38,759 bases of DNA, taken from the NCBI RefSeq assembly GCF_003334255.1, contig NZ_QOWU01000056.1. One strand, written 5' to 3'. The notes beneath the pieces are model-generated. The model was not told where the DNA came from. It saw only the letters and a list, made by a program, of their open reading frames with translations, and did not search any database. The translations under genes and the position numbers were made by a program. This DNA comes from Escherichia coli. GTDB lineage: Bacteria > Pseudomonadota > Gammaproteobacteria > Enterobacterales > Enterobacteriaceae. Below, piece by piece: positions 1 to 38,759 of this stretch (positions within the stretch are counted from its first letter, which is position 1; each line of letters begins with the position of its first letter).

Positions 1-72
1 CGTGTCAGTGGTGGCGCATTATAGGGAGTTATTCCGGCCTGACAAGAGGAAATTTAAAATAATTTTCTGACC
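1..72 (-). promoter_or_regulatory. rRNA operon P1 promoter with UP element, transcribing leftward out of the window (rrnC by synteny)
   Basis: Reverse complement of 1..68 reads AGAAAATTATTTTAAATTTCCTCTTGTCAGGCCGGAATAACTCCCTATAATGCGCCACCACTGACACG: A/T-rich UP element, -35 TTGTCA (40..45), 16-bp spacer, -10 TATAAT (18..23), GC-rich discriminator. Matches the rrn P1 architecture from memory. Confidence 0.8.
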
Positions 73-197
73 GCGCATTTTTTCAGCAAAAACCCCGTTA
101 ATGTGCCATAAAACAAGCAATTTGCCGTTTTTGCAACCGTAATCACACTTCCTGGTGGCATACTAAGGAGGAATAAAAAGAAAAAGGAAGATAAGTA

Positions 198-890
198 ATG
201 CCTTTAAGCGCACAACAGTTAGCTGCACAGAAAAACCTTTCGTATGTTCTGGCTGAGAAGCTGGCGCAACGGATCTTAAAAGGTGAATATGAACCCGGCA
301 CCATTTTGCCCGGTGAGATTGAGCTGGGCGAGCAATTTGGAGTGAGTCGTACAGCGGTACGCGAAGCGGTCAAAACGTTAACGGCAAAAGGGATGGTTTT
401 ACCGCGACCGCGAATTGGTACTCGGGTCATGCCACAATCGAACTGGAATTTTCTTGATCAGGAATTGCTTACCTGGTGGATGACAGAAGAGAACTTTCAT
501 CAGGTCATCGATCACTTTCTGGTTATGCGTATCTGTCTGGAGCCGCAAGCCTGCCTACTGGCAGCAACGGTTGGCACCGCGGAACAGAAAGCGCATCTCA
601 ATACGTTAATGGCCGAAATGGCGGCATTAAAAGAGAACTTTCGCCGTGAACGCTGGATCGAAGTCGATATGGCCTGGCATGAGCATATCTATGAAATGAG
701 CGCCAATCCGTTTTTGACCTCATTCGCCTCGCTATTCCATTCGGTTTATCACACTTACTTCACGTCAATTACCAGCGACACAGTGATAAAGCTGGATCTG
801 CATCAGGCGATTGTCGATGCGATTATCCAAAGCGATGGCGACGCGGCATTTAAAGCTTGTCAGGCGCTGCTACGCTCACCTGATAAGTGA
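198..890 (+). CDS. yieP: GntR-family transcriptional regulator YieP
   Basis: 230-aa ORF; N-terminal HTH region (GVSRTAVREAVKTLTAKG) typical of GntR/FadR family; synteny next to hsrA. Confidence 0.9.
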   Translation: MPLSAQQLAAQKNLSYVLAEKLAQRILKGEYEPGTILPGEIELGEQFGVSRTAVREAVKTLTAKGMVLPRPRIGTRVMPQSNWNFLDQELLTWWMTEENFHQVIDHFLVMRICLEPQACLLAATVGTAEQKAHLNTLMAEMAALKENFRRERWIEVDMAWHEHIYEMSANPFLTSFASLFHSVYHTYFTSITSDTVIKLDLHQAIVDAIIQSDGDAAFKACQALLRSPDK

Positions 891-912
891 TAACCCGATA
901 ACAGGACATTGA

Positions 913-2340
913 ATGAGCGATAAAAAGAAGCGCAGTATGGCGGGTTTGCCGTGGATCGCGGCGATGGCCTTCTTCATGCAGGCACTTGATGCCACTATTC
1001 TTAATACCGCCTTACCCGCAATCGCTCATAGCCTTAATCGTTCTCCTCTCGCGATGCAATCAGCCATCATCAGTTATACGCTGACGGTGGCGATGCTTAT
1101 TCCGGTAAGCGGATGGCTAGCCGATCGCTTCGGTACGCGTCGCATTTTTACCCTTGCCGTGAGTCTGTTCACATTGGGTTCTCTGGCCTGCGCACTTTCT
1201 AATTCGCTACCACAGCTGGTTGTCTTCCGGGTTATTCAGGGGATAGGCGGCGCAATGATGATGCCTGTTGCTCGGCTGGCCTTACTGCGCGCTTATCCTC
1301 GTAATGAACTTCTTCCAGTATTGAATTTTGTCGCCATGCCGGGTCTGGTGGGGCCAATTTTAGGCCCCGTTCTTGGCGGCGTGCTGGTCACCTGGGCAAC
1401 CTGGCACTGGATATTTTTAATCAATATCCCCATAGGTATTGCGGGCCTTCTTTACGCGCGCAAACATATGCCCAATTTCACCACCGCACGACGCAGATTC
1501 GATATCACTGGCTTTTTGCTGTTTGGCCTCAGCCTTGTTCTCTTCTCAAGCGGAATAGAGCTATTCGGGGAAAAGATTGTCGCCAGCTGGATTGCCTTGA
1601 CGGTAATTGTCACCAGCATCGGGTTACTGCTTCTCTATATTCTCCATGCACGACGCACGCCAAACCCATTAATTTCATTAGATTTATTTAAAACCCGCAC
1701 TTTCTCGATCGGTATCGTAGGCAATATTGCAACCCGTCTGGGGACCGGCTGTGTACCGTTCCTTATGCCATTGATGTTACAGGTAGGATTTGGTTATCAG
1801 GCGTTTATTGCTGGCTGTATGATGGCACCGACAGCGTTAGGTTCCATTATTGCAAAATCGATGGTTACCCAAGTCTTACGTCGTCTGGGCTATCGCCATA
1901 CGTTAGTGGGGATCACGGTGATTATTGGGCTAATGATCGCTCAGTTCTCTTTGCAATCACCAGCAATGGCTATATGGATGCTGATCTTGCCGTTGTTTAT
2001 ATTAGGGATGGCTATGTCGACGCAGTTTACCGCGATGAATACCATCACACTTGCCGATCTGACCGATGACAATGCCAGCAGCGGTAACAGTGTTCTGGCG
2101 GTCACGCAGCAACTGTCGATTAGTTTAGGCGTTGCTGTAAGTGCGGCCGTCCTTCGCGTTTATGAAGGAATGGAAGGCACAACGACTGTCGAACAATTCC
2201 ACTATACGTTTATCACAATGGGCATTATTACTGTTGCTTCAGCAGCAATGTTCATGCTTCTGAAAACAACCGATGGTAATAATTTGATCAAAAGACAGCG
2301 TAAATCTAAGCCGAACCGCGTTCCATCAGAATCGGAGTAA
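913..2340 (+). CDS. hsrA: MFS-family multidrug/efflux transporter HsrA (YieO)
   Basis: 475-aa ORF, highly hydrophobic with many predicted TM segments; position between yieP and rbsR. Confidence 0.9.
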
Positions 2341-3298
2341 GTTGTAATCGTTGTTGCTGAAGGGTCGGCTGGGTTATCCGATGGATGAGTACATCAATCG
2401 CCAGCTCCCCCAGTTCATCTTTCGGTTGGTGGATAGTGGTTAATGGTGGCGTCATAAAGCTTGCCAGTTCGATATCGTCATAGCCAATCACCGCGATATC
2501 CTGCGGAACCTGTAACTCTGCCTGATATAACGCCTGGTAAACGCCAACAGCCATAGCGTCATTTCCGGTAAAGACGGCCTGAGGACGCAGCGGATGTGAT
2601 AGCAGTTGGCGCATAGCGTCAAACCCGCCGTTAAATTCAAAATCACCAGTGACTTCATAGCCATCAGGAATGTTGAGACCCGCACGTTTCATCGCCGCCC
2701 GATAACCTTCCAACCGCAGGCGCGCCGGAGTTTTATCCAGCGGGCCGGTAATACAGGCGATACGGGTATGACCTTTATCGATCAGATATTGCGTTGCTAA
2801 GTCTCCGCCCAGCAACGAGTTATCCTGAATAAGATCGCTGTCGCCATCGAACGGAGCCCAGTCCATCATCACAGTAGGCACTGTCGGATAACGTTGCATG
2901 ATTTCACGCGAAGGTTGATGCGTTTCGGTGCACAGTAACAGCAAGCCATCAACGCGTTTTTGCATCAGCGTTTCCAGATTGCGATTCATCCGCTGTTCAT
3001 CGCCTTCGGTATTGCAAAGGACGAGACTATAACCGCGTTCGAAGCAGCTGCGTTCAACGCCACGCACCAGTTCTGAATAGAAAGGATTGGTACTGGCAGT
3101 GATCAACATGCCAATGGTATGTGTTTGATTGAGTTTGAGGCTACGCGCCAGAGCTGATGGCGCGTAATTGAGTTCTTTAATCGCCGCTTCAACTTTGGCG
3201 GTAATCGCTTCACTGACGAAGCGATCTTTATTGATAACGTGAGAAACTGTTGAGGTAGAAACGCCCGCCAGGCGGGCAACATCTTTCATTGTAGCCAA
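2306..3298 (-). CDS. rbsR: ribose operon repressor RbsR (LacI family)
   Basis: 330-aa ORF; N-terminal LacI-type HTH ([24 protein letters not shown]); immediately downstream of rbsK. Confidence 0.95.
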
Positions 3299-15513: not shown

Positions 15514-15529
15514 GTATACAGATCGTGCG

Positions 15530-15805
15530 ATCTACTGTGGATAACTCTGTCAGGAAGCTTGGATCAACCGGTAGTTATCCAAAGAACAACTGTTGTTCAG
15601 TTTTTGAGTTGTGTATAACCCCTCATTCTGATCCCAGCTTATACGGTCCAGGATCACCGATCATTCACAGTTAATGATCCTTTCCAGGTTGTTGATCTTA
15701 AAAGCCGGATCCTTGTTATCCACAGGGCAGTGCGATCCTAATAAGAGATCACAATAGAACAGATCTCTAAATAAATAGATCTTCTTTTTAATACCCAGGA
15801 TCCCA
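15530..15805. other. oriC: chromosomal replication origin oriC
   Basis: DnaA boxes R4 (15536..15544, TGTGGATAA), R3 (15575..15583, TTATCCAAA), R2 (15610..15618, TGTGTATAA), R5/M (15661..15669, TCATTCACA), R1 (15716..15724, TTATCCACA); three AT-rich 13-mers at 15738..15750, 15753..15765, 15769..15781; ~14 GATC sites in ~290 bp; BamHI site 15798..15803; mioC/gidA flanks. Confidence 0.97.
15738..15795. repeat. oriC DNA-unwinding element: three tandem 13-mers (GATCTnTTnTTTT family, here on minus strand) plus AT cluster
   Basis: CTAATAAGAGATC / AATAGAACAGATC / AAATAAATAGATC read directly from the sequence. Confidence 0.9.
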
Positions 15806-15891
15806 GGTCTTTCTCAAGCCGACAAAGTTGAGTAGAATCCACGGCCCGGGCTTCAATCCATTTTCATACCGCGTTATGCGAGGCAATCACC

Positions 15892-26028: not shown

Positions 26029-26324
26029 GTGTGACCCGTCCTGAATAGCGTTCACATAGATCCTGCTGATATAAAACCCCCCTGTTTTCCTGTTTATTCA
26101 TTGATCGAAATAAGAGCAAAAACATCCACCTGACGCTTAAATTAAGGTACTGCCTTAATTTTCTGCAGACAAAAGGCGTGACGATGGTCGAAAATGGCGC
26201 TTTCGTCAGCGGGGATAATCCGTTATTGAACAATTTATCCTCTGTCCATTTCACGATGAAAAAAATGTAGTTTTTTCAAGGTGAAGCGGTTTAAATTCGT
26301 TCTCAAATTACAGTCAGGACGCGT

Positions 26325-34867: not shown

Positions 34868-38759
<3,892 letters not shown>

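Follow-up and report, generated by a model that had tools for sequence, protein, structure and literature searches.

At the rrnB P1 promoter of Escherichia coli, RNA polymerase binds the UP element through the C-terminal domains of its alpha subunits (alpha-CTD), Fis bound at -71 acts through alpha-CTD, and the open complex is short-lived. At the proP P2 promoter the Fis site lies at -41. Fis is cited as a class II activator of proP P2 (McLeod et al. 1999, as cited in PMC4784862), a promoter that is RpoS-dependent according to the title of McLeod et al. as given there (PMC4784862). Three to five Fis sites have been reported per rrn promoter, gel shifts with a ~500-bp rrnC fragment gave the number of Fis sites as first described, and in a fis mutant the activity of all seven rrn promoters is lowered (PMC4696680).

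We analyzed a stretch of E. coli DNA of 38,759 nucleotides (contig NZ_QOWU01000056.1), referred to here as the window. Its positions 1..~197 almost certainly constitute the control region common to the leftward rrnC operon and the rightward yieP-hsrA operon, with rrnC P1, its UP element and its Fis region. This feature is already known from the same organism and the same locus: the yieP-rrsC intergenic region of E. coli K-12 MG1655 differs from it at the strain level only. The main finding therefore re-identifies one of the best-studied bacterial promoters and is without discovery value. Its practical use is to show where the window lies in the E. coli chromosome and how it is oriented: rrnC P1 marks one end, and oriC is found ~15.5 kb in.

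Like rrnB P1, to which it is identical from -68 to +9 (core, discriminator, UP element and start site), the promoter has candidate Fis centers at -71 and -102, which are those of rrnB sites I and II, and is followed by a tandem P2 promoter ~120 bp downstream and then by a boxA leader. Unlike rrnB, it has unrelated sequence upstream of -68, a third candidate Fis site at -122 and no consensus site at -143. The upstream neighbors differ as well: here it is the divergent yieP promoter, whereas at rrnB it is the end of the co-oriented murI. The yieP promoter in turn resembles proP P2: each lacks a good -35 hexamer and has a Fis-like site across the -35 position; in contrast to proP P2, Fis binding at the yieP site is a prediction from sequence only.

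rrnC P1 at the end of the window

The preliminary description of this DNA had read an rrn P1 architecture on the minus strand of positions 1..68, and all of the elements that it named were found at the places it gave them, as follows.

Window 45..40, minus strand: P1 -35 hexamer TTGTCA, with a 16-bp spacer to the -10 (promoter scan)
Window 23..18, minus strand: P1 -10 hexamer TATAAT (promoter scan and alignment of the MG1655 rrn P1 regions)
Window 17..10, minus strand: discriminator GCGCCACC, G+C-rich (7/8 G+C), read directly
Window 9, minus strand: rrnC P1 transcription start (+1, A), from the identity of rrnB, rrnA and rrnC P1 and the 8-nt discriminator
Window 68..46, minus strand: A/T-rich UP element, in rrn sense AGAAAATTATTTTAAATTTCCTC, from ungapped identity to rrnB and rrnA through -68

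For the comparison of P1 we took the DNA upstream of each of the seven MG1655 rrn operons and anchored it on the P1 -10 hexamer. Window 77..1 proved to be the same as rrnB, rrnA and rrnC P1 (-68..+9) at every base, and the UP element (window 46..68, 74% A+T) has the sequence of the rrnB P1 UP element. Relative to rrnC of K-12 MG1655, a single substitution (T for C at -83) was found over -200..+9. Transcription from P1 starts at the A at window 9, which is 9 bp from the -10 as in rrnB P1; with +1 at this position, window position 1 corresponds to +9 of the P1 transcript and the window thus begins inside the transcribed region. This assignment of +1 was independently validated, since the same numbering places our Fis scan exactly on the published rrnB centers at -71, -102 and -143.

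The P1 hexamers match the consensus at 11 of 12 positions and form the sole sigma-70-like site that the promoter scan returned in the first kilobase. The scan alone proves nothing, since one site was found and 1.3 are expected from shuffled sequence at the scan threshold, which is not above chance; the decisive evidence is the sequence identity.

Identity with rrnB P1 suggests that growth rate, ppGpp/DksA and iNTP also regulate rrnC P1, which would make it a canonical growth-rate-regulated sigma-70 rRNA promoter. In such a promoter, the near-consensus core, the suboptimal 16-bp spacer, the G+C-rich discriminator and the start 9 bp from the -10 would give rise to a short-lived open complex and, through it, to sensitivity to iNTP, ppGpp and DksA. 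The alpha-CTDs of RNA polymerase would bind the UP element, and Fis dimers bound further upstream, the proximal one at -71, would activate via alpha-CTD. The distal end of the rrnC Fis array would fall inside the yieP promoter.

The rRNA operon to the left of the window

The leftward extension of the window was read from other genomes. Every one of the 5426 complete E. coli genomes has a match to the first 900 bases, with at least 80% of the query covered in 5424 of them and many matches at 100% identity. The genome NZ_CP060083 matches window 1..900 at 100% identity. Here the promoter scan located a P2 (TTGACT-16-TATTAT) downstream of P1, at 119 bp from the P1 -10; boxA TGCTCTTTAACAA is present to the left of window position 1, and the 5' end of the 16S gene lies 292 nt from P1 +1. 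The annotated gene order in this genome is 16S, tRNA-Glu, 23S, 5S, tRNA-Asp and tRNA-Trp, followed by hdfR, and Rfam returned SSU, LSU, 5S and tRNA matches in the operon. It had been proposed that an rRNA operon begins immediately left of the window, divergent from yieP, and that extending the sequence would reveal its P2 and 16S gene. Both were found in a genome identical over 1..900, within a complete rrnC operon, and MG1655 has the same yieP-rrsC arrangement with the same flanking genes. The operon can be identified as rrnC specifically from its gene order, namely the tRNA-Glu spacer, the distal tRNA-Asp and tRNA-Trp, and the flanking yieP and hdfR; aspT and trpT have been described as coming after rrnC (PMC5179076).

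Many draft contigs (loci L010-L127) end 120-380 nt upstream of yieP. We attribute these ends to assemblies breaking at the repeated rrn P1/leader sequence, and such breaks may explain the window's own start inside P1.

The divergent yieP promoter

On the opposite strand, the following features were placed.

Window 198..890, plus strand: coding sequence of yieP, which opens the yieP-hsrA operon and encodes a regulator of the FadR/GntR family (ORF list and annotations)
Window 171, plus strand: yieP transcription start, with a 27-nt 5' UTR (RACE distance from PMC11340327 and the ATG at 198)
Window 156..164, plus strand: yieP extended -10 TGgCATACT (TG at -15/-14 and hexamer at -12..-7 relative to the RACE start)

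By 5' RACE, yieP transcription has been shown to begin 27 nt ahead of the start codon (Bianco et al., 2024, PMC11340327); this start, at window 171, is 162 bp from P1 +1. The conserved element TGGCATACT occupies -15..-7 relative to this start, and no hexamer passed the promoter scan as a yieP -35. These features point to a weak promoter of the extended -10 type that lacks a -35. A sigma-54 promoter, which the conserved TGGCAT might suggest, was rejected by inspection, as GG and not GC is found 10 bp downstream and the RACE start fits the extended -10 exactly.

Sensitivity to 6S RNA goes with promoters that combine an extended -10 with a weak -35. The yieP mRNA is increased 2.9-fold in a 6S RNA mutant (PMC2848244), which fits the extended -10 promoter class. 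YieP has been reported to activate its own promoter 2.4-fold, and a ChIP signal was detected upstream of yieP (PMC11340327).

Genomic SELEX has placed an RpoH-holoenzyme peak in the yieP-rrsC spacer at window ~116, at a resolution that does not allow one of the two promoters to be singled out (PMC5493296). The transporter gene 3' of yieP (913..2340) is named mdtD by PGAP in NZ_CP060083 and hsrA in MG1655, and its 3' end overlaps the convergent rbsR (2306..3298) by 35 bp.

Fis sites in the upstream activating region

Positions ~73..150 had been described as A/T-rich sequence that would hold the Fis sites of the rrn upstream activating region and overlap the yieP promoter area. The term is fair but not extreme: the A/T content of window 73..150 is moderately high, at 60% against a window mean of 49%, which is in the top 6.8% of 78-bp windows. 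Fis sites were sought using a 15-bp consensus together with the rrnB site centers (-71, -102 and -143) from PMC2885671, with rrnB serving as a positive control. The scan of rrnB returned exactly -143, -102 and -71, plus a presumably spurious site at -22; this false positive of the consensus, which matches 5/5 critical positions inside the core promoter, occurs in rrnB and the window alike. Searching window ~70..150 yielded three candidates: the site at -71 fits the consensus in full, that at -102 nearly so, and that at -122 less well.

Window 73..87, minus strand: predicted equivalent of Fis site I, center -71, in rrn sense GCTGAAAAAATGCGC, 10/11 consensus and 5/5 critical positions
Window 104..118, minus strand: predicted Fis site II-like sequence, center -102, GCTTGTTTTATGGCA, with A instead of C at +7
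Window 124..138, minus strand: predicted Fis-like site, centered at rrn -122 and yieP -40, in rrn sense GGTTGCAAAAACGGC, 8/11 consensus and 4/5 critical positions, with G/C ends; instead it may bind YieP or some different activator

The -102 site, centered as rrnB site II is, matches 10/11 positions overall and 4/5 critical positions and was returned by a relaxed scan in which one critical mismatch was allowed, while the -122 site has its mismatch at critical position +3 in E. coli. No consensus match corresponding to the -143 site of rrnB was found in the window by either the strict or the relaxed scan. Transfer of the rrnB Fis sites to the window by identity was ruled out, as rrnC diverges upstream of -68, where its sequence is unrelated to that of the other six MG1655 rrn operons. 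One strict Fis site per 130 bp arises in ~12% of shuffles, and the case for the Fis sites therefore rests on positional conservation and not on a single-sequence match. The -102 and -122 assignments in particular are predictions from a degenerate consensus that also gives false positives.

Intervals of 31 and 20 bp, or ~3 and 2 helical turns, separate the centers at -71, -102 and -122, so that all three predicted centers would lie on one helical face. The rrnC fragment used for the published gel shifts (PMC4696680) reaches ~-208 and covers window 1..~217. These gel shifts point to three or more Fis sites within -60 to -208, so that the array must extend into the yieP promoter area. An array at -71, -102 and -122 is most likely, although we infer the exact positions beyond -71. 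The proposal of Fis sites within ~73..150 is thus largely supported by the consensus sites together with the gel shifts and the fis-mutant effect (PMC4696680), the positions at rrnC being predicted. The overlap with the yieP promoter is supported by the RACE start at 171: the -122 Fis-like site spans -47..-33 relative to yieP and is contained in the yieP core (-47..+1, window 124..171).

Conservation and spacing across Enterobacterales

Orthologous yieP loci were found in a species-representative genome collection by means of a degenerate nucleotide pattern derived from the helix-turn-helix peptide of YieP. The comparison set consisted of the 40 Enterobacterales taxa with enough upstream sequence; these are phylogenetically related, so the counts given below overstate independence. 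They include Escherichia, Citrobacter, Enterobacter, Leclercia, Kluyvera, Pluralibacter and Siccibacter as well as Shimwellia, Serratia, Yersinia, Rahnella, Rouxiella and Acerihabitans, with YieP identity down to 64%. A divergent rrn P1 core was present upstream of yieP in 40/40 taxa. Mean pairwise identity among the 40 taxa was as follows.

P1 -10 and discriminator (window 10..23): 0.98
P1 -35: 0.80
-71 Fis site: 0.69, with the G/C ends and A-tract at ~0.9
yieP TGGCATACT: 0.86
Shine-Dalgarno: 0.75
Window 88..155: 0.40-0.50

In every one of the 40 taxa, 130-132 bp separate the P1 -10 from the yieP TGn-10 (sd 0.66), whereas the yieP -10-to-ATG segment, which is three-fold shorter, ranges from 39 to 53 bp (sd 3.5). 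The two promoters have therefore stayed equally far apart, to +/-1 bp, in taxa ranging from Escherichia to Yersinia and Rahnella, although the intervening sequence diverged nearly to saturation. A sequence counted as a Fis-like site in the 40 taxa if its ends were G/C and it matched no fewer than 4/5 critical positions and 8/11 positions overall. A site centered at -71 was found in 40/40 taxa and one centered exactly at -122 in 25/40; shuffles gave an expectation of ~0.5 taxa per position in each case. The fixed inter-promoter spacing and the -122/-40 site, of which no mention was found in the literature searched, are a minor new observation that leaves the classification of the locus unchanged.

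In the rrnD-yrdA spacer of MG1655 (locus L008, positions 378 and 567), yrdA is likewise divergent, and its start codon is at -189 from rrnD P1 +1. This is the exact distance of the yieP ATG from rrnC P1 and may be a coincidence.

Coupling of the two promoters

The preliminary description had also raised the possibility that the two divergent promoters are coupled. Fis binding and activation at rrnC P1 and autoactivation by YieP are taken from the literature, whereas we infer cross-talk between the promoters; judged from the sequence, coupling is a plausible hypothesis. We tentatively propose that rrnC P1 and yieP may form a single, anciently fixed bidirectional module, in which the Fis-like site at -122/-40 and/or P1 supercoiling would wire the YieP regulon (rydC/cfa, sdaC, yohJK) to rRNA growth-rate control. 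Fis bound at rrn -122 would activate rrnC P1 distally and yieP in a class II-type manner, and/or negative supercoiling generated by P1 would drive yieP, with the result that yieP would be expressed under growth-rate control. We consider such a mechanism possible, with the balance leaning against it.

The conserved spacing of the -10 elements in all 40 taxa, set against the variable -10-to-ATG distance and the low identity of the intervening DNA, argues for a module of this kind. However, the same spacing is expected if the 130 bp are simply packed with independent sites, and the relatedness of the taxa inflates the counts. The recurrence of a Fis-like site exactly at -122 in 25/40 taxa, where it is centered at yieP -40, is consistent with class II activation as documented for Fis at proP P2, and the yieP promoter, having no -35, is likely to be activator-dependent. 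Yet the E. coli match at -122 is only 8/11, with the mismatch at critical +3, and Salmonella fis-mutant RNA-seq and Fis ChIP-seq tables have no entry for yieP locus tags, listing nothing between rbsR (STM3886) and STM3893, the expected place of yieP. In the literature searched, yieP and Fis were mentioned together only incidentally. If coupling is true, it would link YieP, a recently characterized metabolic and membrane regulator, to the control of ribosome synthesis, and it would provide a natural case of an extremely strong promoter acting on a weak divergent neighbor.

The block at -122 could instead be YieP's own operator. According to this alternative, the conserved block at ~120..138 and/or window 101..115 is an activating operator for YieP and not a Fis site, the rrnC Fis array ends nearer to P1, and the two promoters are independent neighbors crowded into a short spacer. 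Both the 2.4-fold positive autoregulation and the ChIP signal upstream of yieP (PMC11340327) speak for an operator, but with the published motif atTTGTaTGAcaAAT no convincing one was found in the yieP-rrsC spacer, where only weak or half-site matches were obtained. The best of these is the following.

Window 101..115, minus strand: weak predicted YieP-motif match TGTTTTATGGCACAT, 17/25, overlapping the -102 Fis-like site

This whole-motif match is centered at yieP -63, a class I activator position; its score, however, compares with 19-22 for validated sdaC sites, and ~0.14 such matches are expected by chance in the region. At window 120..124, the conserved ATTTG is the first half of the published motif, but 120..134 matches a half-site only. 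Moreover, going by the gel shifts, the rrnC fragment carries three or more Fis sites, which requires sites beyond -71 and -102. We therefore regard a YieP operator in place of the distal Fis sites as unlikely. Where the motif match at 101..115 lies over the -102 Fis-like site, competition or cooperation between YieP and Fis is possible.

It is practically inconceivable that P1 resembles a sigma-70 promoter by chance or is a pseudo-promoter, for example a remnant without an operon: although the generic promoter scan gives no more sites than shuffled sequence, such an origin is already refuted by the 77 consecutive bases identical to rrnB and rrnA P1 and by the full rrn operon that adjoins in every genome examined, and the P1 core is kept beside yieP in 40 taxa.

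Other features of the window

The gap between mioC and mnmG (window 15514..15891) is the place of oriC; it contains 37 GATC per kb, compared with 5.8 window-wide, and DnaA-box matches at 15536, 15610 and 15716. The rrnC operon has been described as lying ~16 kb from oriC and as the only rrn operon that does not co-localize with the others (PMC5110994). A full-length match to the enterobacterial sRNA STnc410 (Rfam RF02060, 188 bits) was found at window 26084..26241 on the minus strand, in the atpC-glmU spacer and antisense to the flanking genes. Compared with strain G1/2, the window shows only 4 substitutions up to position 38682 and then runs out of register in bglB (~38683..38759); the G1/2 bglB is annotated as frameshifted, and the window and G1/2 therefore differ by an indel there.
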